This document shows, piece by piece, positions 2,315-15,584 of a stretch of DNA of 21,934 bases (position 1 is the first letter of the stretch; every line of letters starts with the position of its first letter). This stretch comes from Vibrio cholerae ATCC 14035 (GTDB lineage: Bacteria > Pseudomonadota > Gammaproteobacteria > Enterobacterales > Vibrionaceae): contig NZ_JHXR01000031.1 in NCBI RefSeq assembly GCF_000621645.1, forward strand, positions 1 through 21,934. The letters run 5' to 3'. The position numbers were made by a program, and so were the translations under genes. The notes beneath the pieces are model-generated. The model was not told the origin of the DNA, made no database searches, and saw only the letters and a program-made list of their open reading frames with translations.

Positions 2315-2532
2315 TGTTTTAGGTCAGTTTTTCTGTACAGCATTCATTTTGGTATTTGACTTATTTTTCCTTATGCCAAAACTCTAGCTATACGGCCAAA
2401 TTTGCTCAGCCAGTAGACTATATCTACGTATATCAAATCGATGTCTTTGTAATCTCTACACCTTCCCCACAATTTAGCACACAGGTAATATGATACAATC
2501 ATCGTATTGTGCGGTTTTGCGGATACATAAAA

Positions 2533-3774
2533 ATGGCAGAGTTGTTTTATCAAGGTAGCAGTGAAATTGATCGAAAAGACTTAGAGAGTCATTTGTCCTC
2601 TTTGTGTCAACTAGAAAACGTAGGGGTATTACTTGGTGCAGGCGCTTCCAAGAGTGCAGGTGGTATGGTCATGAAAGAGATTTGGTTAGACTTTAAATCT
2701 CGAAATGAACCAATGCTTCCGATATTGAGAGATCAGTACAAACTGATTAGCCAAGAGGAGATTGATGCTGGCTCTGTCAATATTGAACTTTTGATTGATG
2801 AGGTGCTTAAAAACAAGAGCGTGATGGATACTTGGCAGCAAGACTCAACTGCTTTGTTTAATGTCTTGGTTGAACTATATCGCTCAGTAACCAAAGCTGC
2901 CTTATTGGTAAATTCAGACTTTCCTGAACTTCACATAGGGAAGAATGAGAAGTTTGATAAACATAGAAATTTACTAGAAAAGCTGCTGTCAAATCGCCAA
3001 CCTGGTCAAGCTGCACCATCCATTTTCACTACAAATTATGATTTAGCCATAGAGTGGTCAGCAGAAGAGTCAGGGATCAACCTCATAAATGGCTTTTCGG
3101 GCATTCATTCAAGAACCTTTCAACCTCACTCCTTCGATTTAGGGTTTCGTAATATAAACGCAGTGGGAGAAGCTCGTTTCGGACATTACAACATGTACCT
3201 ATACAAGCTTCACGGTTCATTGACTTGGATTCAAGATGAAAGCGGGGAAGTCATCGAATGCACTAGTTCAAAAGCTTACCAAGATTTCATTAACCCTCTG
3301 ATAAAAAATAGTAATTTCACTGAGAATCAACGTCTAATTTATCCTGGAGCCAACAAGTACCACCATACAATTGGTTTTGTATATGGTGAAATGTTCCGCC
3401 GATTTAGTGAGTTTTTGACTAAACCACAGACCACTCTATTCGTTAATGGTTACGGTTTTGGAGATTACCACATCAATAGAATTATTCTTGGCGCTTTACT
3501 TAATCCATCTCTTCATATCGTTATCTGCTATCCAGAATTGGCAGAGCTTTGTGCAAACAGTCAGCTTCAAAATGGATTGAGTCAAGCCCAACGATGCATT
3601 GATAAAATAAGAAAAATGAAACTAAATCAAGTCACAATCATAGGCGGCACTGATGCTTACTTTGATAACTTCGTGGATTTGATTCCAAAACCTGTTTTGT
3701 TCCCTAAAAATAATGCAGCCAAAGTGATAGCTGAAGCTATTCAAGACCTTGGTTCAAGTAACAATGGGGAATAG
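2533..3774 (+). CDS. SIR2-family NADase-like protein (SIR2 component of a SIR2-HerA defence pair)
   Basis: Motifs VLLGAGASKSAGG (Rossmann GAGxS), IFTTNYDLAIE and YKLHGSLTW (catalytic His region) match the defence-type SIR2 pattern. ATG 2533 is preferred over the track's GTG 2509. The stop lies 3 nt before the herA ATG. Confidence 0.8.
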   Translation: MAELFYQGSSEIDRKDLESHLSSLCQLENVGVLLGAGASKSAGGMVMKEIWLDFKSRNEPMLPILRDQYKLISQEEIDAGSVNIELLIDEVLKNKSVMDTWQQDSTALFNVLVELYRSVTKAALLVNSDFPELHIGKNEKFDKHRNLLEKLLSNRQPGQAAPSIFTTNYDLAIEWSAEESGINLINGFSGIHSRTFQPHSFDLGFRNINAVGEARFGHYNMYLYKLHGSLTWIQDESGEVIECTSSKAYQDFINPLIKNSNFTENQRLIYPGANKYHHTIGFVYGEMFRRFSEFLTKPQTTLFVNGYGFGDYHINRIILGALLNPSLHIVICYPELAELCANSQLQNGLSQAQRCIDKIRKMKLNQVTIIGGTDAYFDNFVDLIPKPVLFPKNNAAKVIAEAIQDLGSSNNGE

Positions 3775-3777
3775 GCG

Positions 3778-5589
3778 ATGAGCTACAACGATATGTCCCA
3801 AATAGGATACGTAGTATCTCTAGAAGGCACTAAAATTCGGGTAAATCTGTTAGATAGCCATAAAGGACAACTAGCTTCACATAGAGGTGGAGTGAACTCT
3901 GTGTCTCAACCTGGAGACTTAATAGCTTTTGAGGCAGGTAGGCATCTGATAGTAGCACGTGTGACCGATATGTCCTTTGTTGAACCAGAAAAAGCACATG
4001 CTACTAAGTTTGGTACGATGAATGTATCAGACATACCGTTAAGACAATTAGTTTGCCATGCTATTGGGCACATAAAATCAACCGAAGACAGACTGCACTT
4101 TATTTCTGAAAACTGGATGCTACCTCCTTTAGGAGCTAAAGCTCTTCCACTAGATAAAGATCTCTTAAATATTGTGTTTGGCATATCAGAGGAAGAACTA
4201 AAATTTTCCTTAAGGCTTGGCAGCGACGCCAGAACCCGTACAGTAGAAATTCGAGCGGGTGTAAATAAGTTGTTAAGTAGGCATTTAGCGGTACTAGGAA
4301 GTACTGGGTATGGCAAATCTAACTTCAATGCTTTGATTACAAGACAGATAGCAGAAAATTTTCCGAGTTCAAGAATTGTAATCTTCGATATTAATGGAGA
4401 GTACGCCCAAGCGTTTGAAGGCTTGAAAAATGTGCGGCAAACCGTATTAGGGGTAGGCACAAATATTGAGTCTGATGATGTGTTCTCAAAGGAGCACGTT
4501 AACTACCATCGGATACCTTACCAGTCTCTTGGCTGGGCTGGTTTAATCAAACTACTTAGACCGAGTGACAAAACACAATTACCAGCACTACGAAACGCAC
4601 TGCGTTCTTTACCTTTTGTGAAGACAAATCCAGCCAATCCGAATGAAATGTTGGTAGAGCAATATGATTCAAGCTCTGGTATTACAAATAGTTTCGCCCT
4701 AGTAGATGACTGTAGTCCAAACAATCAAGCTAATTTAAGCTCCTGGTTGAATGTTCTTCAACAACAGTATGTAAAGAGGCAAGTTCAATGGCCTCCGTTC
4801 AAGGCATTAGCCAACTTAGTAGCAGAATTTGGCTGTGTGGCTGCGAGTCGAAATGCTGGTTCAAGTGAAAGGAATGCTTTCAATTATGGAAATGTTCTAC
4901 CTCTGATTAAAATTATCCAGCAGCTTTCCGAAGACTCTCGTTTTACAGAAGTATTAGACACAACTGGTGGGCAAAGCATAAATGCAGCGAAGACTTGGGA
5001 CGCTCCTCTACAAGATGAAGTTGACTATATTTTTGGTAAACCAAAAGGAACTCCTCAAGATTGGAATGTTCACATAATCAACTTGAAAGGACTAGCTGAT
5101 GATTTATCCCCGTTAGTTCTAGGCGCTCTTCTCGAAATGTACGCAGAAGTACTCTTTAAGCGTGGGCAAAATAATAGCTACCCAACGTTACTCTTATTGG
5201 AAGAAGCTCATCAATATCTGCGTGACCCTTATGCTGAAGATGCAAATCAATTAAAAGCTTATGAGCGATTAGCTAAAGAAGGTCGCAAGTTCGGTTGCTC
5301 ATTACTAGTTAGTACACAGAGACCATCTGAACTTTCTTCTACTGTTTTGGCCATGTGTTCCAACTGGTTATCATTGAGATTAACTAATGAACGAGATCTC
5401 AATGCATTACGACATGCTATGGAAAATGGAAATGAAACTGTATTAAGCGAAATATCTGGTTTACCTAGAGGAGATGCTGTGGGATTTGGCTCCGCATTTA
5501 ATATTCCAGTGAGAATGACAATTGATGAGGCAGTACCTGGCCCAGCCTCAACAGATGCCAATTTTGCTGAGGTTTGGAGTGATGGGTAA
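3778..5589 (+). CDS. herA: HerA-like (FtsK/HerA superfamily, DUF87-type) ATPase, partner of SIR2
   Basis: Walker A LAVLGSTGYGKSN, Walker B LLLLEEAHQYL and the STQRPSEL motif. The N-terminal SQIGYVVSLEGTKIRVNLLD is barrel-like. Tightly coupled to the upstream SIR2 gene. Confidence 0.85.
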   Translation: MSYNDMSQIGYVVSLEGTKIRVNLLDSHKGQLASHRGGVNSVSQPGDLIAFEAGRHLIVARVTDMSFVEPEKAHATKFGTMNVSDIPLRQLVCHAIGHIKSTEDRLHFISENWMLPPLGAKALPLDKDLLNIVFGISEEELKFSLRLGSDARTRTVEIRAGVNKLLSRHLAVLGSTGYGKSNFNALITRQIAENFPSSRIVIFDINGEYAQAFEGLKNVRQTVLGVGTNIESDDVFSKEHVNYHRIPYQSLGWAGLIKLLRPSDKTQLPALRNALRSLPFVKTNPANPNEMLVEQYDSSSGITNSFALVDDCSPNNQANLSSWLNVLQQQYVKRQVQWPPFKALANLVAEFGCVAASRNAGSSERNAFNYGNVLPLIKIIQQLSEDSRFTEVLDTTGGQSINAAKTWDAPLQDEVDYIFGKPKGTPQDWNVHIINLKGLADDLSPLVLGALLEMYAEVLFKRGQNNSYPTLLLLEEAHQYLRDPYAEDANQLKAYERLAKEGRKFGCSLLVSTQRPSELSSTVLAMCSNWLSLRLTNERDLNALRHAMENGNETVLSEISGLPRGDAVGFGSAFNIPVRMTIDEAVPGPASTDANFAEVWSDG

Positions 5590-5677
5590 TCATCAAGTTG
5601 ATTGAATACTAGAACTAGACTTTTTGCTAATTACCCAAATTCAGCTTATCCGAACCAGATGGTGTAGAGCAGTAAAT

Positions 5678-5738
5678 CTAAGTCATTTCTGTCCATCTTC
5701 GAGCTAGCTGATTTGGCTAGCTCAGATCTGCCCCAAAG
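5678..5738 (+). repeat. Intergenic motif copy B: CTAAGTCATTTCTGTCCA, an 8-bp hairpin, then CTGCCCCAAAG
   Basis: Matches copy A at 17/18 positions. Hairpin GAGCTAGC(5701-5708)/GCTAGCTC(5716-5723) has a different sequence but the same position and stem length as in copy A. TGCCCCAAA at 5729-5737. Confidence 0.6.
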
Positions 5739-5847
5739 CGAGTTACAATCAGGGGCAAAAAAAATTATTTACAGGGTCGCTAGATATCACACATTTTTTG
5801 AGTCAGTCTTCTACTAGACTCCATCGGTGTTTGTGTACAGATGCATA

Positions 5848-7224
5848 CTAGTTATGAGTAACGAATCCCAGTTCACCAATGGAGTCCCTAACAGCCGCCA
5901 TATCTTCTTTAGCGAGTAACTCGTGATCTAAAGCCAATACCAACCTCTTCTTGGCACGAGTAAGAGCGACATAGACCTTTTTCCATTCTTTATTAAATCG
6001 GTTTGCTTCGCTAATAGCATTTTGGGTCAAGTATTTTAGGGTATTAGAGCTAAGTATGATTACACACACATCAGCATCCAATCCCTTGATAGATTCGATA
6101 CTTTGGACTTTGAATTGAACGTCATGTCCCGTACAAGAATTGCACAGCTCAAGTAATTGGGCTAAGTGTTGTTTACTAAGTGTCAAGCCATGACTGGTTT
6201 TTAGCCTATTGATAGCAATTCTTGCACCGACTTCGGCGACATCGTCCATAAAGTCAGAAAAAGCTGCTTTAACAAACAAAGCTTTGTCTTTCTTGTGGTT
6301 AGAATCACGAATCATTTCCTCGATCTCTCGTGGGAATGCGTGTTTGTGTTTAGACGAAGTGGTATAGCGACCATTCTTTTTGTCGATACAAACAAGTTGT
6401 TTTGTATCTAAGTAGTTCGTTAGTAGCTCGTCATATCGTCCGTCCGTCGATTCAATGTACATGAGTTCACCAACCATTTCTGATAGTGACTCTTGTTGTT
6501 GACCTTCATAACAGAAGCTGTTTGAGACCGCTAGTATCTCTGTGGGTACTCGTCTGGTTTGATTGTTGATCGGTAGTATAGTCGCGTATTCTTTTGGAGC
6601 TACTTTTCGAACGAAAGCATCAAGATCTTGGGGAAACTTGATGGCTTGTTTTGGATCTCCGATCATATACACATCAATATCGTTGCACCCTAGAACTTCG
6701 AAAAAACGGAGTGCATCTTTGTCTAAGTCTTGGACTTCATCGATGAATATCTTGTCAAAGCAGCTTCCTAGAATAGCCAATAGTCTGCGGACTTTTGCTT
6801 TCTTCGCTCTGTTATTGTGCTTGCTGATGGTTTCATCAACAATTTGTTTAGCGATGTTGTATACGCTCTCGGCATGAATGACGTTCTTATCTTTTAATCG
6901 TTTTAAGTGCCAGTTTTTGAATCTAGCATCGCTCGGTAACATCATTATTGATGCGTCGTTATACACATCTCCGAGAGTGAATGACGAGAATGGGTAGATG
7001 ATTTCGTTTAACAAGAAGCTATGTACGGTCTGTATACAGAGATTCGACGGAATAAAGCCATGCTGTTTGATTATCTCTTGTTCTATCTTCGCTGTTGCAG
7101 AGTTTGTGTACGTCAGTGCAAATGTCTTTTTGTGACTAGTACAAGCTTCGATGTGCTCTATCAAAGTCTTTGCTAAGCCATAAGTTTTCCCAGCACCTGC
7201 ACCAGCAATCTGTACTTCTATCAT
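5848..7224 (-). CDS. gajB: Gabija GajB, UvrD/PcrA-like SF1 helicase
   Basis: IAGAGAGKTYGL (Walker A), IFIDEVQDL (motif II) and VYVALTRAKKRLVL (motif VI). There is a 4-nt ATGA overlap with the upstream gajA stop. Confidence 0.8.
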   Translation of the reverse strand: MIEVQIAGAGAGKTYGLAKTLIEHIEACTSHKKTFALTYTNSATAKIEQEIIKQHGFIPSNLCIQTVHSFLLNEIIYPFSSFTLGDVYNDASIMMLPSDARFKNWHLKRLKDKNVIHAESVYNIAKQIVDETISKHNNRAKKAKVRRLLAILGSCFDKIFIDEVQDLDKDALRFFEVLGCNDIDVYMIGDPKQAIKFPQDLDAFVRKVAPKEYATILPINNQTRRVPTEILAVSNSFCYEGQQQESLSEMVGELMYIESTDGRYDELLTNYLDTKQLVCIDKKNGRYTTSSKHKHAFPREIEEMIRDSNHKKDKALFVKAAFSDFMDDVAEVGARIAINRLKTSHGLTLSKQHLAQLLELCNSCTGHDVQFKVQSIESIKGLDADVCVIILSSNTLKYLTQNAISEANRFNKEWKKVYVALTRAKKRLVLALDHELLAKEDMAAVRDSIGELGFVTHN

Positions 7225-8918
7225 GATACCGCCTCGATGACCTCAGCGATGTGAGCTGGTAACTTGATATCCAGTGGATTCTCTTCATCAACCATCGCAT
7301 CACATACATCAAGCATTCTTGCTGTCTTACCATTAATCATGTGCTTGGATACTGCGTCGAGGTCGCCTTCCATTTCGAATAAATCATTTAGTAAAGCTAG
7401 GTTGTCTTCTGCTTCTACTAAATCAATTTCAAGTGTGTAGTTTGTTGTTGTTCTTACAGTGACATTCGCATGCGCTGTGTCATAGGTATCATGTTTGGCT
7501 TTAGCCGCATCTGAATTGTCATAATCACGGACAACACCAATTTTCTTATTCTGGTTATCTTTGTTCAAGGCTAGCCATATATCTAAGAAAGTGGCGTAAC
7601 CACGTTGACCAATTGGAATAATATCGATGTCGTTGAGGGCTGGTTGTTTAGACAGATAAGTGCTGATTAGCATTTCTTCAGTCGGCCCCTCTACGAGAAT
7701 TACTTTGTTCGCAAACAGCAGCTTTAAGATGTCGAAGTTAGGTCTCTTTCTTAGGTAGTCAACTAGCTTAGTTGGAGTATCAGACAGACTAATTGCTTTC
7801 TCGCCAGTAAACGCCAACACATTAGAAAGCTTCAACTTGTTGATGATCGATGGGTTATGGGTCGAAATGATAGTTTGTACAAGCGAGCCGCTGTTGCTTG
7901 AGCTTTTCTCAATGAAGTCTCTTACTAAACGAAGGTTGTTAACGCTCAAGTGTGCTTCTGGTTCTTCTATACAGCACAAGTTGAATGTATCACCACATGA
8001 CTTGTAGTAAGCAAACAGGATGAGTATGTAGATAAGATTTCGTTGCCCTAAGCCTTTTTGGTACAGAAATTCATTACCGTATTTCAAAGTGATGTTCGAT
8101 AAGATGTTCTTCAAATTAGGCAGGTTAGGAGTGCACTCAAGCTGTTTGATAATACTGTCGTAATTCTCAAAATCGTCATTAGCTCCAATGACTTTGTCGA
8201 ATGTTTCAGTCTTTTCAATAGCACTAAAGAACTCAGAGTAGGCTGTATTGATCTGACCTTTGTCGTCATCGTTGAGAGTGTTCATAAGCAGCTTGGTGAA
8301 AATGCTATTGGACTTCATTGAACTGCTTTCTGAGAAGTCATCTCGCTCTGCATTGATACTATGGATACTGACGTGTTTTAAGTCACTGTATGCGATAGGC
8401 TTTTCGTTGTTCACAGATACGACTTGGTAGTCGTAAAGCTCAACGGGTAGAGTAAACCAGTTAATATCATCTAAAGTCTTACCAGCGAGCGATTTCTTTA
8501 CAACCTCAAGCAAGTCTTTGTCGTCTTTAGGCTTAAAGTCGTATCTAATTTTGTATGTTTCTTCGCCTCCATCAGCAACAATCCACTTAGCCAACAGAGC
8601 TGTTTCATAAGCATCTTTCGGATCTGCGAACTCTACGGTTACGGATACTTTAGGGATCTTTGTAAGCTGATTATCTTCAGTGTCATCATCGACAACAGAC
8701 TTTAGAAAATCAATCACGGCATCTTTGTTAATGTCTGAGACACTCAATCGCTTCTGGTTGAAGTCTATTTGGTTGCCGCTTAACGGTAACGAAAGTGCGG
8801 TGAAAAAGTTCGTCTTACCAGTATCGTTTTCACCAATGACAACTGTTAGCTGCTGAAGCTGTGCTTCGAAAAAGCGGAAGCTGCGGTAGTTTTTGATCGT
8901 TACCTTTTTGATGTACAT
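7221..8918 (-). CDS. gajA: Gabija GajA, OLD-family ABC-ATPase/TOPRIM nuclease
   Basis: KKVTIKNYRSF..VVIGENDTGKTNFF (Walker A), CCIEEPEAHLS (Walker B/D-loop), VILVEGPTEEMLI and VRDYDNSD (OLD-type TOPRIM). ATG 8918 has AGGGAA 7 nt upstream and is preferred over the track's GTG 8939. Confidence 0.85.
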   Translation of the reverse strand: MYIKKVTIKNYRSFRFFEAQLQQLTVVIGENDTGKTNFFTALSLPLSGNQIDFNQKRLSVSDINKDAVIDFLKSVVDDDTEDNQLTKIPKVSVTVEFADPKDAYETALLAKWIVADGGEETYKIRYDFKPKDDKDLLEVVKKSLAGKTLDDINWFTLPVELYDYQVVSVNNEKPIAYSDLKHVSIHSINAERDDFSESSSMKSNSIFTKLLMNTLNDDDKGQINTAYSEFFSAIEKTETFDKVIGANDDFENYDSIIKQLECTPNLPNLKNILSNITLKYGNEFLYQKGLGQRNLIYILILFAYYKSCGDTFNLCCIEEPEAHLSVNNLRLVRDFIEKSSSNSGSLVQTIISTHNPSIINKLKLSNVLAFTGEKAISLSDTPTKLVDYLRKRPNFDILKLLFANKVILVEGPTEEMLISTYLSKQPALNDIDIIPIGQRGYATFLDIWLALNKDNQNKKIGVVRDYDNSDAAKAKHDTYDTAHANVTVRTTTNYTLEIDLVEAEDNLALLNDLFEMEGDLDAVSKHMINGKTARMLDVCDAMVDEENPLDIKLPAHIAEVIEAVS

Positions 8919-9055
8919 AAGAATTTCCCTAAAAAGCACACAAGTGCATATGCCACTAATATACTACAAGTCATGTGGTTACTGTATTGTTCCAACTACT
9001 TGTTGGGGCCTAAGTGTGATCGCACGTAACTCGGAAATGTCCAATTGTGTGTAAT

Positions 9056-9418
9056 TCAAAGTAAAGGAGAACTGCCCATTACGATCTCGAACTTCGTAAA
9101 CAACGCTATTGGTCGAGATTCCATTCCCCTCACATCCAGATAAGCAAAGCCCTTAGATGAAAGAGCTTCGAAAGCATCAGTAACATCCTTGATACTACGC
9201 CCACTCATTTCAGCAAGTTCATCAAGATTGTTTGGCTTCTCGCGAGCAATCAAATTCAACAGTTCAACATTTTCGTTAGACAAGAGTTGTGAAAGCGCAG
9301 CCAGTGACTCAAACAAAAATTTTGGGTAAGGTTCTTCAGGCGTCACTTTTCCTTCTGCAATGCGAATCATGCGCTTACGAGCAAGCTCTTCTGATAGAAT
9401 GCCGATTTTTGCTTTCAT
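9056..9418 (-). CDS. Small winged-HTH DNA-binding protein (MarR/ArsR-like, antitoxin-type regulator)
   Basis: ...LSQLLSNENVELLNLIAREKPNNLDELAEMSGRSIKDVTDAFEALSSKGFAYLD is a wHTH pattern. SD-like AGGAGTGAGGA ends 4 nt before ATG 9418, so the track start at 9445 is less likely. Confidence 0.65.
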   Translation of the reverse strand: MKAKIGILSEELARKRMIRIAEGKVTPEEPYPKFLFESLAALSQLLSNENVELLNLIAREKPNNLDELAEMSGRSIKDVTDAFEALSSKGFAYLDVRGMESRPIALFTKFEIVMGSSPLL

Positions 9419-9573
9419 ACAATCCTCACTCCTAATAGTCGCCATCTAAATCGACTGAATAATCACCGACGATCACATCTAATTCTTTTTTCATTTCTTG
9501 GGAAGGAGCAATCAACAGAAGTGGTTCTCACACGAAGTTTCTGTTAGTCCACTGATCTTTTCTTTTTCGCGCT

Positions 9574-9777
9574 TCATTGCTGGATACTCCCATTTTTTAT
9601 TGACGCAATCACTTTTAATAAATCGGCCGTGATTGCTGAACATTTGTCATTCATAAAAAACGTTACTTCATCTCCAAATTTCATCGTTACGATACCGCTT
9701 TTATCGACACTTAACAGCGCGAAAGACTGCTTCAAGTCGAGAGTCGTGTTACTTCCATTGGTCGTGGTTTCAGCCAT
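9574..9777 (-). CDS. Hypothetical 67-aa protein, 61 nt downstream of hipA
   Basis: ATG 9777 is preceded by GAGGGG. No recognisable domain. Co-oriented with the hipA operon. Confidence 0.4.
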   Translation of the reverse strand: MAETTTNGSNTTLDLKQSFALLSVDKSGIVTMKFGDEVTFFMNDKCSAITADLLKVIASIKNGSIQQ

Positions 9778-9838
9778 ATTTCCCCTCACTGCTAACGAGT
9801 ATGTTTACAACACGGGCAACCATTGTTACACCAGATGT

Positions 9839-11158
9839 TTACTTAATTGTTCTGTTTAACTTTTCAACGATTTCAGTGGCATGTTGAAATATTGCATCCT
9901 TTACCAACGCAAACTCCTGTCCAGGGAATCTTTTGTCTATAGAACTCAGTGCGCTACTAAATTGAGCGAGAAAGGCATAGAAGATTTCATGGCATTCAGC
10001 ATTACTGATACCGAACTGACTCGCTGTCTGCTCTATATGCCGTAAGCAAATCTTGCTGATATGGTATTTGTATCCTCGTGATGCTTGCAGTCCCATTGCT
10101 AGTTTTAGCTTGCGCTTATTTAACCCTGTAGCACTGACAGCAGGGTAAGCTGATAGCAAATCGTAGAACGGTGCAAGTTTATAGTATCCGCCAGTATCAA
10201 TATGCACGGAAAAATTCTTGAGATGACCGTCAGTGGCACCAAGAAGGCACTGTAAAATCATGAATTTAAAAAAGTCATGATTGTTCGCCTTGCTTTGCGC
10301 AGAGAGACTTAAAACATCAACAATTTTGGAGACACTTAGGTTGTTCTCCGATTGATATTTTTGATGTTCAGGTACACCCAAAATCTGGCAGAAATCTTCT
10401 TGGTGTCTACGAGTCACAACTCCATCACCAAAACATCGGTCGAACCGTTTTACTGCAAGGGCTTTAGTTCCTGATTCTGCGGTTATTATCTCAATGTCGG
10501 GGACTTTAAAACCAAGTTCCTTTGCTATTTGAGTACAGATGAATTCATTCTCAATGCTGCTACTCATATCTAGCACGGAGTTACTTTGGGTAATCACATC
10601 CATCGGATACTTAACTATGTGACTACTGAACGCGGTTCCCTGTGGGACATACCACCTACCATTTGTTTTCATCAGCGTGGTTTTTCTTTGTGTACCAGAT
10701 ATACATGGCCTGTAGTCACCAAAACATGGAAGAAATGACTTACGCTGAGTAACGAGTTCATTTAATTCACTTGCCGAGATCTCTCGATATTTCCACCCTA
10801 TCTTTGGCGGCTCCCTACTCTCAGTAAATGAAATGCCGCCCGTGCAATCGTGACCAACTTTTGAGAGTAAAGTGAATACATCGTTGGATTGCACACCCAC
10901 CGACTGAGCAAGACTGAATCGTTCTTCTTTCAAGTCAGGAAGCAGGTTGTGAATAAAATTCAGTGCGTAAAATGATGCACATTCTCCCTTTACGAGCGGC
11001 AGGCTTAACGAAAGCGGAAAGGCTGAATCATATGCTAACCACTCATCAGAGTATGAAAATGATAAGTTGGTCTTCGACTGTTGGACAAACTGCCCCACAA
11101 GCATGTTGTTATTTGTGGCATGTGCGTAAAGTATAGGATTATGCAAATTAGCTCCCAC
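9839..11158 (-). CDS. hipA: HipA-family serine/threonine kinase toxin
   Basis: Collinear with recalled E. coli HipA: PLSLSLPL, NLLPD, ISGTQRKTTL (cf. VAGAQEKTAL), ALAVKRFDR, LLGATDGHLKNFSV (catalytic loop), LAPFYDLLSAYP, LKLAMGL. The start is GTG 11158 (11-nt overlap with the upstream ORF) or TTG 11146 (SD GGGAG 5 nt upstream). Confidence 0.9.
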   Translation of the reverse strand: MGANLHNPILYAHATNNNMLVGQFVQQSKTNLSFSYSDEWLAYDSAFPLSLSLPLVKGECASFYALNFIHNLLPDLKEERFSLAQSVGVQSNDVFTLLSKVGHDCTGGISFTESREPPKIGWKYREISASELNELVTQRKSFLPCFGDYRPCISGTQRKTTLMKTNGRWYVPQGTAFSSHIVKYPMDVITQSNSVLDMSSSIENEFICTQIAKELGFKVPDIEIITAESGTKALAVKRFDRCFGDGVVTRRHQEDFCQILGVPEHQKYQSENNLSVSKIVDVLSLSAQSKANNHDFFKFMILQCLLGATDGHLKNFSVHIDTGGYYKLAPFYDLLSAYPAVSATGLNKRKLKLAMGLQASRGYKYHISKICLRHIEQTASQFGISNAECHEIFYAFLAQFSSALSSIDKRFPGQEFALVKDAIFQHATEIVEKLNRTIK

Positions 11159-12003: not shown

Positions 12004-12219
12004 TGAGTTAGGTTTGTATGTGGTTTGGACTGAATCAATTGGAGTGTATTCTAGGGATAGGGCTGTTTTTCACAGCTATGTTGCGGAGAGTTCAATGACC
12101 ACGAAAGATCATGGGGCAATCTCATCTCTACTCTCTGCTTTTTGGCTACAGCGTATTAGCTAATAGAGTCAGCGAAGGAATCACTGACTCTAGGTTGAGT
12201 TCAAAACGCGAAGAATATA

Positions 12220-12722
12220 TCAAGCGAAATAAGCGTCATAATGTGGCTTATCATTCGTTTCAATAGCAGTGCAGATTATGTCCCAAATAGCCGCCAATTG
12301 TGGCTGTACGGCTTCAGGAAGTTGTGTACCAAGCTCCATCGACTTCGCATGGCATTTTTCATTCATGTACTCATACAAGGCGTTTGCCTTCACTTCAGCG
12401 TTATCAATACCTTTCAAAAAATTAGGGGCGATATGATCTGTCCCTTGCTTTCTGAAATCAGTCAGGTTAAACCTGAACGAAAAATACACTTCCATTATTT
12501 TTCTGATATACGACTGAACAGCAATAGCGTCACAGTTTTGTGGTTGCGTGACAGCTTCTTTGATTTTACTGATTAGATAAGCGTATTCAGACCTATGGTT
12601 CTTCAATAAGTCAGGCAACTGGTCAATTTGCGAATGATCGCCTTTACGGTTAATTAAGAAGTACTGCGAACGTTTTTGGTTGCCTTCTTTTGCACAATAG
12701 TAAGACATCCACTTCTTCACTA
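12220..12722 (-). pseudogene. C-terminal half (166 codons) of the IS-split type III toxin-like gene
   Basis: The first 12 codons of track ORF 12220..12756 are IS-derived. From 12720 downward the frame continues that of 13817..14245 once the IS is removed. Domain unknown and helical-looking; SYIRKIMEVYFSF and YEYMNEKCH weakly recall C-terminal tails of AAA_13/HEPN-type proteins (memory only). Confidence 0.6.
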
Positions 12723-13816
12723 TACCAGTGATCATTGAAGATGCTTGATTTCTCATAAAATCAGGATCATGCTACGCTCCATGAAAATAACACTGACTCC
12801 CCAACAGAAACTACAACTCGAAGAGATGCACGATTCCACTCGTGATGGTCGAGTACGTGACCGCATCAAAGCGGTCTTACTTGCGTCTGAAGGTTGGAGT
12901 CAGGCGATGATTTCTTAAGCTCTTCGCATTCACGAATCGACTGTTGCACGTCACCTCAGCGACTACGTGCTTTCTGAAAAACTCAAGCCTGAAAATGGTG
13001 GAAGCCAAAGTAAGCTTTCTGCTACCCAAACCATGCATCTAATCGAGCATTTGACTGAAAAAACTTATTTCCATACCCATCAAATCGTTGCTTACGTCGA
13101 GGCTGAATTCGCCGTTCGCTACACAGTTGCAGGCATGAATAAGTGGTTACATCACCACGGTTTTTCATACAAAAAGCCCAAAGGTGTACCGCACAAGCTA
13201 AAACCTGAAGAGCAGCAAGCATTTATCGAGTATTACAACGAGGTGCTTAAGTCCAATGATGCACCAGTGCTTTTCATGGATGCTGTTCATCCGACTCAAT
13301 CAACAAAGCTCAGCTATGGCTGGATCCGTAAGGGGCAGGATAAGCTTATTGAAACGACAGGTAGTCGTACTCGAGTGAATTTAATCGGTGCTCTACCCCT
13401 GAAAGAGATTAGCGACACGATCACCGATACTTATGAGACGATAGATAGCGAGAGTATTGTTCGCTTCTTTTGGAAGCTCAAGAAAGAGTGTTATCCACTA
13501 GAGCAAACCGTGCATATTGTGCTTGATGGCGCAGCCTATCATCGGTCAGAAATGGTGAAGAATGCGGCAAAAGTGCTCAATATAGAGCTTCATTACTTGC
13601 CACCATACAGTCCAAACTTAAATCCGATAGAGCGGCTTTGGAAAGTAATGAATGAGCATGTGAGGAACAATGTCTATTTTCCCTCCAAAGCAGCATTCAC
13701 CTCTGCTATCAAAAAGTTTTTTGATGTGACGCTAGCAGAAGTTGCAGGCTCACTCGCATCCAGAATTACGGACAATTTTCAGATATTGAAACCTGCATCT
13801 TCAAGTTGAACGGGTA
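12723..13816 (+). mobile_element. IS630-family insertion sequence, 1094 bp, flanked by a TA target duplication
   Basis: Imperfect terminal IRs (19/30): left TACCAGTGATCATTGAAGATGC.., and right, reverse-complemented, TACCCGTTCAACTTGAAGATGC... TA at 12721-12722 and 13817-13818. Encodes an IS630/Tc1-like transposase. Confidence 0.8.
12781..13809 (+). pseudogene. IS630-family transposase with an in-frame nonsense codon
   Basis: The ATG 12781 frame (MKITLTPQQKLQLEEMH..RDRIKAVLLASEGWSQAMIS) hits TAA at 12916-12918. The same frame continues ALRIHESTVARHL... to 13809. The DDE region includes LHYLPPYSPNLNPIERLW. Confidence 0.8.
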
Positions 13817-14245
13817 TATATTGGCATCGTTGCGCTTTACTGCATCAATATATTTTTCAACATACTTCTGAAATTGACTGGTTATATGTTCTTCTTTGCC
13901 GATGAGTTTTTTACCAGACTTCTTATTTCGTAAGACAAATACATCATCAGTAACATGGCTATCATCTCTGATTAAGAGTGCCTTTGAGTAATCCAGCCCC
14001 ATGCCTTTGATGGTTCGATCTTGGCGGTTCACCTCTAAGATATATGAGGCATTGTGCTTGATATATGATCTTACAGGAATGGCGAATGTTAATCCGTTAA
14101 TGGTAATTTTAACAATGCCATGACCTCTGGTTTTACTGCTATTCCATGTGCCTAACTGACTATCAAAATCCAAATCTTGTTCTACTTTGGGGTTGTCTAC
14201 ATAGAAAGATTGATCTAATTTTTTTAGTTCCATATCCGATCCCAT
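13817..14245 (-). pseudogene. N-terminal half of the IS-split gene; ToxN/AbiQ/TenpN-like type III toxin domain (tentative)
   Basis: The ORF begins 5-17 nt after a terminator that follows tandem repeats. FYVDN near the N-terminus and GIVKITINGLTFAIPVRS resemble the recalled ToxN segment GIVLEIQGHKYLAPLTS. The last 16 codons of track ORF 13766..14251 are IS-derived. Confidence 0.55.
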
Positions 14246-14249
14246 ATAC

Positions 14250-14281
14250 AAAAAAACCCTGACTTGAGTCAGGGTTTTTTT
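14250..14281 (-). terminator. Rho-independent terminator (symmetrical) between the repeats and the toxin ORF
   Basis: CCCTGAC(14257-14263)/GTCAGGG(14268-14274), 4-nt loop, flanked by A7 and T7 runs. Confidence 0.8.
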
Positions 14282-14291
14282 GTAGATAATA

Positions 14292-14390
14292 CAAGGAATT
14301 TAGGTTTTTTACGTGGGGATGTTCCTACCGCCACAACAAACAAGGAATTTGGTGTTTTTTACGTGGGGATGTTCCTACCGCCACAATCTA
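14292..14390 (-). repeat. Two head-to-tail ~49-50-nt direct repeats; candidate type III antitoxin RNA
   Basis: CAAGGAATTT at 14292 and 14341. An identical 32-nt core TTTTTTACGTGGGGATGTTCCTACCGCCACAA occurs twice. The repeats lie between a putative promoter and the terminator, upstream of the toxin-like ORF. Confidence 0.6.
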
Positions 14391-14397
14391 CACTTAT

Positions 14398-14426
14398 GCT
14401 TTAGTACTCGTAGCCACTGCTGTCAA
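14398..14426 (-). promoter_or_regulatory. Putative sigma70 promoter driving the repeats and toxin
   Basis: On the minus strand: TTGACA (14426-14421), 17-nt spacer, TAAAGC (14403-14398). The -35 is perfect and the -10 is weak. The predicted start falls just before the first repeat. It lies ~40 bp from an IS remnant, so it may be a hybrid promoter. Confidence 0.4.
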
Positions 14427-14466
14427 GCACTTTTAAGCCATATCTATCAGAGAGTTACTTTGATCA

Positions 14467-14870
14467 AATAGTCGTCGTATAACCCAACCAACTGATATGA
14501 ATACTATACCAATATTTGATGTAGCCCAAGCTTTCTTTCACATCATTGTGATAAATGATTTTTTCTATAGAAACTGCGCCTTTTGCTATACCTAATCTCA
14601 TAGCTGGCGTTTTTCCATCTTTCCCCTAAGGACAAAGTTGTAAAATAATCTATACAAATCAGCAAGTTTAATATACATGTCGGTCTTATATGGACTGTAT
14701 CCATACCATACCCTCCTGCTATTCGTGCCACTGGAAAATGGTCGTTCAAACACGCTTACTCTACGTCTAGCCTGCATGAAGAATCTATCAATACCATGCA
14801 GGCTGGCATTGGAAACCAATGCTGCCAACCTTATATCATCGGATTTGAGAATAATGGCTGTGCAGCGAAG
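14467..14870 (-). pseudogene. Decayed DDE transposase C-terminal remnant (IS1-like)
   Basis: There are two minus-strand frame segments. One reads ..HGIDRFFMQARRRVSVFERPFSSG..LYRLFYNFVLRGK (cf. recalled IS1-type IERFN..LRQRVSRLVRKTLSFSK). After a frameshift the other reads GKDGKTPAMRLGIAKGAVSIEKII (cf. ..TPAMAAGL..W..EELL tails). No start codon, and the N-terminal part is absent. Confidence 0.45.
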
Positions 14871-15000
14871 TTACTGCAAAAAGGGTTCTTGCAGAAATTG
14901 ACCTGATGCCACCACTTGGTGCAGGGAGTATTAAAGTGTCTGAGAAAGATTTTTTACTCACAAAAAAGCCCCCATATACAACCATAACATACTGTATATA

Positions 15001-15125
15001 TACCCTTCCTACTTGAAGCTGCAGCGGTGTTGGATGCATTCGTTCACCCCAATCACATAGCTTTATCTATGCTCATGGGGATTCACTCATTTGCCGCCCA
15101 CCTGCAACTTCAAGTTGTTTGGGTA
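15001..15125. mobile_element. 125-bp MITE related to the IS630-family element at 12723-13816
   Basis: Its ends are TACCCTTCCTACTTGAAGCTGCAG.. and ..CTGCAACTTCAAGTTGTTTGGGTA. They are inverted repeats of each other (~21/29) and match the IS right end CTGCATCTTCAAGTTGAACGGGTA. Flanked by TA (14999-15000 and 15126-15127). No coding capacity. Confidence 0.7.
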
Positions 15126-15314
15126 TAAAGCCATAGAACAGATTGAATTGATAGAAAGGCTGACCAGCATTAGTCCTAGCACCCTTGAAAATACCGAAAT
15201 TTTTTATCGATTTTATGTTTTTAAACATGCATATGCCCCCAGAAAGACCAGGGTATTGTACTACGTGTTAAGCGCTTTCCAACGCAACTTGTTTGTTATT
15301 CTTATTTGTTGGCG

Positions 15315-15584
15315 ATTCAAAGTAAAAGGGAGCTGCCAATAACGATCTCGAATGTCGTAAACAACGCTATTGGTCGATATTGACCTCTAAATACGCAAAA
15401 TCCTTAGATGAAAGAGCTTCCAAAGTATCAGTAACATCCTTGATGCTGCGCCCACTCATTTTAGAAAGTTAGTCAAGACGGTTGGGCTTTTCGCGAGAAA
15501 TCAAATTCAGTAGTTCAACATTTTCGTTAGACAACAGTTGTGAAAGCACAGCTAGTTTATGCAAATTATATCTCCAGTGACTCA
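15315..15584 (-). pseudogene. Degraded, 5'-truncated paralogue of the wHTH regulator at 9056-9418
   Basis: Aligns with 9054-9311 at roughly 85% in the alignable blocks. It has a ~10-nt deletion, a ~21-nt insertion (15555-15573) and an in-frame stop (CGT CTT GAC TAA, versus LDEL in the intact copy). Confidence 0.8.

Follow-up and report, generated by a model that had tools for sequence, protein, structure and literature searches.

Structure of the locus

We analysed a 21,934-nt stretch of DNA from Vibrio cholerae ATCC 14035 (contig NZ_JHXR01000031.1; hereafter the window, in the whole of which all coordinates below are positions) and focused on its tenpIN locus, a type III toxin–antitoxin module that is read on the minus strand. 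In an intact tenpIN module, a promoter transcribes a set of repeats (tenpI) and a terminator limits read-through into the toxin gene tenpN; the pseudoknotted TenpI RNA keeps the TenpN endoribonuclease inactive until phage infection releases TenpN. The V. cholerae locus is already known, having been catalogued in 2012 in strains O395 and MZO-3 (Blower et al. 2012, Table 1; PMC3401426). Exact-sequence look-ups return V. cholerae accessions, with proteins of O395 and M66-2 among them. The features at the locus are listed here in the order in which the minus strand is read.

15127–15309, minus strand: 5′ remnant of an AAA_13 ATPase gene, with about 80 bp of upstream DNA and codons 1–34 (coding sequence start 15228), ending at TA 15127–15126
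15001–15125, minus strand: miniature transposable element with inverted repeats (MITE) of the ERIC type, 125 bp, with TA flanks 15126–15127 and 14999–15000; left end of a 2403-bp unit
14431–14998, minus strand: frameshifted and degenerate remnant of the C-terminal part of a ~600-aa conserved hypothetical gene, the native upstream neighbour of tenpIN
14398–14426, minus strand: putative tenpIN promoter, TTGACA (14426–14421), 17 nt, TAAAGC (14403–14398), read from the sequence
14291–14386, minus strand: tenpI antitoxin, two tandem 49–50-nt repeats, defined by Tandem Repeats Finder (TRF), conservation and an outer helix
14252–14281, minus strand: intrinsic terminator between tenpI and tenpN, placed by RNA folding and by a position conserved across loci
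13766–14233, minus strand: truncated tenpN′ open reading frame (ORF), 155 aa, made up of 139 TenpN codons (14233–13817), 16 codons encoded by an insertion sequence (IS) and a stop
12723–13816, plus strand: IS630-family insertion sequence, 1094 bp, with TA flanks 12721–12722 and 13817–13818; right end of the 2403-bp unit
12163–12722, minus strand: 3′ remnant of the same AAA_13 gene, with the TA of codon 571, codons 572–737 (stop 12220–12222) and about 57 bp downstream

A first-pass annotation made from the letters had proposed a type III, RNA-antitoxin locus here, with a promoter, tandem repeats, a terminator and a toxin gene interrupted by an IS. The type of locus was recognized correctly: the toxin gene scores above the cut-off of the TenpIN model NF047358, and the repeats, the terminator and the gene order match those of the TenpIN family. 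The tandem repeats of ~49–50 nt were confirmed by TRF, which returned a single array at 14291–14386 (period 50, 1.9 copies, 95% matches, score 176). Their core, GTGG(C/T)GGTAGGAAnATCCCCACG...AAAAAC..AAATTCC, is near-invariant 5′ of every tenpN homologue examined, far above chance, and tandem repeats lie upstream of all of these homologues. We found the identical layout of two 49–50-nt repeats in Microbulbifer, Pantoea, Morganella, E. coli, 19 metagenome loci and one viral contig. Of the pairings inside each repeat, those of the helix GUGG.GG/CCCCAC hold in 100% of cells across 19 sequences. A second helix, AGGAA/UUCCU, has four inner pairs that are invariant, so that covariation says nothing for or against them, and an end pair that fails in 7 of 19 sequences in repeat 1 and in 3 of 18 in repeat 2. 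These pairings bear on the putative pseudoknot of the repeat RNA with an A-rich stretch. An outer helix, GUAGAU (14391–14386)/AUCUAC (14287–14282), encloses both repeats and was recovered in the minimum-free-energy fold too. Its general form, GUAG(N2-3)/(N2-3)CUAC, occurs in nearly all loci (columns 8–13 and 116–121 of alignment A2) and shows compensatory changes, one pair being CG in 10 sequences, UA in 4 and AU in 2, and another UA in 15, CG in 1 and UG in 1. A search of Rfam found no tenpI family, the sole significant match being V_AS5, which falls on the MITE. As a separate observation, contigs of short-read assemblies often end within the tenpI repeats (loci L001, L013, L014 and L062 of our collection, in which loci are denoted L and proteins P).

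The promoter and terminator calls rest on RNA folding and conservation instead of a consensus scan. The hexamers named by the first-pass annotation, TTGACA and TAAAGC, are present at the proposed spacing, and homologous loci carry promoter-like hexamers at the same position, but the −10 hexamer matches the consensus at 3 of 6 positions only. This region varies between copies, reading GAGTAC-TAAAGC in the window, TAAAGT in the intact V. metschnikovii locus and GAGTAT-TAAAGC in L059 and L060. Folding of the RNA from 14250–14398 (z = −3.6 for the whole segment) gave the predicted terminator, a hairpin CCCTGAC-TCAA-GTCAGGG followed by a T-run in the DNA, hence a U-run in the RNA. Its position is common to homologous loci and its stem sequences differ between them. 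Upstream of the promoter, the conceptual peptide of 14431–14998 is 43–64% identical to hypothetical plasmid proteins of Pseudomonas, Marinobacter, Rhizobium and others (best E ~1e-24), and in V. metschnikovii (L063) the stretch runs without a break into intact tenpIN. Pfam searches of the region upstream of tenpI and of its 608-aa homologue returned no family.

The toxin gene lacks its last 20 codons

An ORF does begin just 3′ of the terminator, as first annotated, but the ATG at 14233 (MELKK), and not the codon at 14245, is the conserved start. The 155-aa product scored 91.4 bits against NF047358 (NCBIfam TenpIN; cut-off 90), covering model positions 1–126 of 141, and the intact TenpN P0041 scored 108.8 bits over positions 1–141 of 141. 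The TenpN part of the window is 53–67% identical to annotated TenpIN toxins and 96% identical to P0002; as far as 13817, it matches the intact L001 homologue at 98.6% identity. The first-pass annotation had described a ToxN-like half of ~145 aa. We predicted the structure of the close homologue P0002 with AlphaFold2 (mean pLDDT 76; C-terminal blocks 81–91), and the best structural matches of the model were ToxN (2xd0_A, 7d8o_A) and AbiQ (4glk), followed by MazF/Kid. The likeness to ToxN thus holds for the predicted fold, yet the protein is a member of the TenpN family, and its native part is 139 aa.

In intact TenpN (L001, L063, P0041 and P0002, close relatives that are 96–99% identical), ...AVKRNDANI is followed by LNSFEYRFTTLVNYHTELGL and then a stop, giving a protein of 159 aa. 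The window copy is without the last 20 residues. Five of the 26 invariant columns in an alignment of 22 homologues (L, T, L, H and E) fall in this tail, as do the nearly invariant residues Y, R, Y, L, G and L. Because the last 20 residues, invariant positions included, are lost, the toxin is most likely inactive. An inactive toxin would leave the surviving antitoxin RNA with no partner, and the antitoxin is probably redundant.

We also considered that the module might still work as a toxin–antitoxin or abortive-infection system, with the 155-aa TenpN′ (139 native and 16 IS-encoded residues) keeping RNase activity and tenpI still being needed. Several observations are compatible with such a module. 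TenpN′ passes the NCBIfam cut-off; TenpN of P. luminescens was shown to be active at only 143 aa (PMC3401426); the window and the intact V. metschnikovii locus L063 have identical tenpI repeats, outer helix and terminator; the terminator stem of other copies shows a compensatory change from C-G to A-T; and the exact truncated protein is recorded in V. cholerae as ABQ22065.1 and others, the allele occurring on ~185 contigs. However, the match of TenpN′ stops at model position 126 of 141, so that likening it to the 143-aa P. luminescens protein misleads. The missing 20 residues hold the invariant T, L, H and E and all of the nearly invariant positions, and they belong to a tail that is confidently modelled (pLDDT 81–91). 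Moreover, L061 has lost one whole tenpI repeat, L059, L060 and L062 have a mismatch in the outer helix, and the −10 hexamer is weaker in the window than in the intact locus. We therefore regard a working module as improbable.

The two halves of the 305-aa frame come from unrelated genes

The interrupting element belongs to the IS630 family, as first annotated: it has 24-nt imperfect terminal inverted repeats, TA on both flanks and a transposase with DDE_3 (131 bits) and HTH_33 (73 bits) domains. Removing it together with one TA (1096 bp) leaves, again as first annotated, an open frame of 305 aa with the junction ...NDAN-I-VKKW.... Against this reconstruction, NF047358 matched residues 6–148 (model positions 1–133 of 141, 90.7 bits). 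The profile searches that the first-pass annotation had suggested thus gave a TenpIN match in the N-terminal half, but a Pfam search of the reconstruction gave no match to a ToxN_toxin (PF13958) or AbiQ profile at E ≤ 1.

On the basis of the open frame, an ancestral two-domain type III toxin of 305–309 aa, split later by simple IS630 insertion, had been proposed as a possible new toxin architecture, its C-terminal half being described as an unrecognised helical domain. The uninterrupted frame and the TA dinucleotides on both IS flanks agree with that proposal, and terminal extensions are reported for some TenpN proteins (PMC12283969). The C-terminal half is not unrecognised, however. Residues 145–274 of the reconstruction matched Pfam PF13166 at positions 578–697 of 713 (E = 1.5e-15), and the C half also matched the C-termini of the PADLOC PDC-S06 models (730–790 positions); its 166 residues are the C-terminal end of an AAA_13 ATPase of 737 aa. 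A genome scan with P0001 retrieved 11 loci (L002–L012) with AAA_13 genes of 737–738 aa in Photobacterium, Enterovibrio, Vibrio, Shewanella and others. By tblastn and blastn (window 12722–12163), the C half is 88–95% identical to the last 166 codons of the 737-aa homologues.

The 5′ end of the same gene lies in the window too. By tblastn, the 5′ piece is 85–94% identical to residues 1–34 of the 737-aa homologues, and by blastn, window 15309–15126 matched the first 34 codons and the upstream DNA of L002–L012. Both pieces are on the minus strand and in the correct order, the 5′ piece 2.4 kb upstream of the 3′ piece. Between them, 1608 bp of the AAA_13 gene (codons 35–570, including the ATPase core) are gone and 2403 bp stand in their place. 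The left break reads ...GGCTT-TA and then TACCCAAAC, and the right break reads ...CACTGGTA and then TA-GTGAAG. The TA dinucleotides at both outer breaks are present in intact AAA_13 genes, and all four junctions sit at a TA beside the terminus of an element.

The gene is intact in V. cholerae LT897797.1 (L068, reached via its AAA_13 protein P0068), in which a 737-aa AAA_13 gene occupies exactly this chromosomal site. The gene order in L068 is RNA recognition motif (RRM) protein, murI-type racemase, subtilase, btuB, HVO_A0114 fragment, AAA_13, helix-turn-helix (HTH) gene, 179-aa gene and HipA. On its two sides, identity to the window is 96% and 90%: window 16244–15126 matches L068 at 96%, the window lacks precisely L068 8104–9711, and the 3′ remnant is contiguous with L068 9712–13058. 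A second intact AAA_13 protein, P0057, is encoded at another chromosomal site and is thus uninformative on the ancestor.

A search of 5.8 billion protein clusters with the reconstruction returned 23 hits, none covering both halves, so that the uninterrupted fused homologue which the two-domain proposal predicts was not found among them. The only C-half match among the clusters, P0001, is a partial AAA_13 protein that reads ...FEFFNLVKMWMSYYR... across the supposed junction. Among the hits, the called lengths of the TenpN homologues run from 167 to 188 aa, with the start extended in some of the calls. In 20 of 33 loci with the tenpI core (metagenomes and one viral contig), a TenpN ORF follows downstream; all of these tenpI-linked toxins are 159–174 aa, none longer. 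The intact alleles of the two halves are separate genes, and intact TenpN ends 20 aa past the junction. The first-pass annotation had allowed that intact homologues might prove to be two genes with a stop at the junction; the result goes beyond this, the two halves being unrelated genes. An ancestral toxin of this length is, in our judgement, next to impossible.

We conclude that the 305-aa frame is two unrelated genes joined across a mobile element. The halves line up in frame because both TA targets occupy codon positions 2–3, a 1-in-3 coincidence. An open frame after in-silico IS excision is no proof that the flanks formed one gene, and this caution is strongest for TA-targeting IS630 elements, because flanks that do not belong together leave no trace in a duplication of 2 bp.

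A 2403-bp block bounded by a MITE and an IS630 element

The DNA that stands in place of the ATPase core runs, from 15125 to 12723, through the MITE, the pseudogene remnant, the putative tenpI promoter, two repeats, the terminator, tenpN codons 1–139 and the IS630 element, and it is flanked on the outside by codons 34 and 571 of a single AAA_13 gene. The MITE folds as a long hairpin (z = −5.9), and its terminus, TACCCAAACAACTTGAAGTTGC, resembles the IS630 terminus, TACCCGTTCAACTTGAAGATGC. It is a multi-copy element, found at 104 places in 66 records of a plasmid collection, in Vibrio and in enterobacteria (E. coli, Salmonella and Klebsiella). The IS630 transposase of the window has an in-frame TAA at 12916–12918, where L059, L061 and L062 have CAA (Gln); the L059 copy, with Gln at this position, encodes an intact 344-aa transposase. 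Given this CAA-to-TAA nonsense change, the window copy is probably not autonomous.

The MITE (window 14998–15128), with its IS630-like termini and TA flanks, matches Rfam RF02818 V_AS5 (102.9 bits; gathering score 96), which is described as ‘Vibrio RNA AS5’ and typed as an antisense RNA gene. Because V_AS5 matches an ERIC-type MITE, the family may describe copies of a mobile repeat and not a dedicated RNA gene.

Other V. cholerae assemblies carrying the block were found by looking up the truncated ORF of the window. In MZO-3 (L059), identity to the window is 99.3% and starts and stops exactly at the TA-flanked block ends, 15127–12721. The left flank differs in L059 and L060, and the right flank differs in L059, L061 and L062. 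These constant boundaries in differing contexts indicate that the block is a distinct unit with IS630-type ends, which would be a composite transposon or else a stretch of DNA swapped by way of its terminal repeats. V. metschnikovii L063 is 99.6% identical to window 15000–13817, that is, to the pseudogene remnant, putative promoter, repeats, terminator and tenpN up to the IS junction. After the junction, it continues with the remaining 20 tenpN codons, a type I restriction–modification system and then the same HTH, 179-aa, HipA and HVO_A0114 genes. Since it has neither the IS630 element nor the MITE, it shows the empty site for both.

Separately, we examined and rejected an inside-out transposition, in which the inner ends of MITE and IS attack a circular tenpIN donor: the MITE-adjacent TA-TATACAG is not contiguous with the post-IS tenpN sequence TA-CTCAATAG.

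Proposed origin of the arrangement

We conclude with high confidence that the locus is a decayed TenpIN module in a 2403-bp block bounded by IS630-type ends, which replaces the middle of an unrelated, defence-type ATPase gene. The arrangement may have arisen in the following way. A V. metschnikovii-like tenpIN would have gained a MITE on one side and an IS630 element on the other, each at a TA site, the IS cutting tenpN at codon 139. The resulting 2.4-kb unit would then have reached the AAA_13 gene of the V. cholerae lineage, either by IS630-type transposition or by recombination through IS or MITE copies. The loss of 1608 bp would most likely reflect recombination between two element copies, as when one TA carried the unit and the other a lone IS630 or MITE; alternatively, solo copies already in place might have led to the same loss through a double crossover.

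Some points weigh against this account. Transposition with deletion and double recombination leave identical junctions, and both routes fit. The right flanks of L061 and L062 come from short-read assemblies and are possibly chimeric at the multi-copy IS. Neither the promoter nor the terminator of tenpIN was picked up by a simple consensus scan. As for the claim of inactivity, a search of PDB sequences with intact TenpN returned nothing relevant and no solved TenpN structure, and the probable loss of toxin function is read from conservation alone.

Copies of tenpI without a toxin gene

Among the 33 loci with the tenpI core, 13 are without tenpN by tblastn at E ≤ 1e-3 (L028–L031, L035–L038, L041, L042, L047, L049 and L056), with repeats 84–94% identical to window 14250–14390; one of these, L047, ends at the repeat and is uninformative. 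In several of the 13, the repeats come with promoter-like hexamers, an outer helix and a terminator of their own. They lie beside umuD/umuC-like genes in L031, L035, L038, L047 and L049, inside a cluster of restriction–modification and other defence genes in L030, and beside a 379-aa gene, which is Fic-like by reading of its sequence, in L029, L036, L037, L042 and L056.

The remaining case, L041, is a TARA scaffold that carries a single tenpI-like unit (~5020–5065) and no tenpN in a region of phage genome, where PHROGs matches include DNA polymerase, ATP-dependent ligase, primase/helicase, exonuclease and endolysin. By analogy with the pseudo-ToxI that a Pectobacterium phage reportedly carries, this unit is a candidate phage-borne pseudo-antitoxin.

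These loci bear on the possibility that the tenpI of the window serves as an orphan antitoxin, carried on a mobile MITE–IS630 unit and neutralising in trans a TenpN encoded by a plasmid or an integrative and conjugative element (ICE), or blunting TenpIN abortive infection. The tally of toxin-less copies, the promoter-like hexamers and terminator that several of them have, the single unit in the phage region and the occurrence of the 2403-bp unit in several contexts would all agree with such a role. However, the tenpI copies of V. cholerae show no sign of selection, one having lost a repeat and others having stem mismatches. In ToxIN and CptIN, processing of the antitoxin RNA requires the toxin itself, and TenpI processing would normally need its toxin likewise. 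Furthermore, a single repeat was not antitoxic in P. luminescens (PMC3401426). Recent decay is the simplest reading, and we consider an orphan antitoxin unlikely.

By a bolder version of the same idea, the 2403-bp block would move as an active composite transposon and disseminate an orphan antitoxin RNA that is expressed and acts as portable immunity against incoming TenpIN addiction or abortive-infection modules. We think this doubtful; if it were true, the toxin-less tenpI copies in umuDC-type settings (ICE- or plasmid-like), in defence clusters and in the phage region would be parallel cases.

Genomic neighbourhood and implications

The decayed module lies near a defence island at 2509–11158 of the window, which contains the following genes.

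2509–5589: SIR2_2 protein and HerA-type ATPase
5848–7224: UvrD-type helicase, apparently forming a Gabija-like pair with the next gene
7221–8939: AAA_15 and OLD-TOPRIM ATPase, the apparent partner in the Gabija-like pair
9056–9445: HVO_A0114 winged helix-turn-helix gene
9839–11158: HipA, then a 179-aa gene and an XRE HTH gene

Between tenpIN and the HTH gene, the cargo varies among related strains, being a type I restriction–modification system in L001 and L063, other genes in L059 and AAA_13 in the window. Just upstream of the AAA_13 5′ remnant, a fragment at 15316–15556 is 83–84% identical to the HVO_A0114 gene (9055–9305), and L068 has a 65-aa HVO_A0114 ORF at the matching position.

The arrangement records a remodelling of the defence island in which a MITE- and IS630-bounded block knocked out a second defence-type gene, that of the AAA_13 ATPase. 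It also corrects the catalogue of tenpIN loci: the listed V. cholerae tenpIN is the truncated allele and is probably dead, which bears on alignments and on experimental testing.

Comparison with known systems

The locus agrees with the TenpIN family (Blower et al. 2012, NAR 40:6158, PMC3401426). The repeat length and copy number of the window fall inside the family ranges (39–57 nt and 1.9–3.0 copies), the toxin matches NF047358 and a terminator stands between the repeats and the toxin gene. It also agrees with the layout of tenpI described by Nadig et al. 2025 (Sci Rep 15:26624, PMC12283969) and shares with TenpIN E. coli cluster 2 of that study the duplicated UUGU at the repeat junction, an A-stretch and two complementary stems. 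It differs in that an IS630 element breaks the toxin gene at codon 139 of 159 and in that the locus lies inside a MITE–IS630 block; the main texts of Blower 2012 and Nadig 2025 mention neither the IS630 cut of tenpN nor the MITE–IS630 embedding.

ToxIN and AbiQ share the same operon logic, and the predicted fold of P0002 is similar to theirs (TM ~0.5), whereas sequence identity is 12–14% and the repeats of the window are longer and fewer than those of ToxI. The AAA_13 (PF13166) ATPase, which falls under the PADLOC candidate system PDC-S06 and of whose gene the window keeps only the two ends, is unrelated to the type III toxin; one source labels a member of an AAA_13 cluster ‘wobble nucleotide-excising tRNase’.

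The closest parallel for the mobile elements comes from Photorhabdus, in which the same relation between an ERIC-like MITE, MITEPlu5, and a ‘CCC-type’ IS630 has been described (BMC Genomics 2018, PMC6267812). The elements of the window share with them TA targets, termini starting with TACCC, a 125-bp hairpin MITE and the likeness of MITE and IS termini. In the window, by contrast, one MITE and one IS bracket a 1.2-kb cargo, tenpI and tenpN′.

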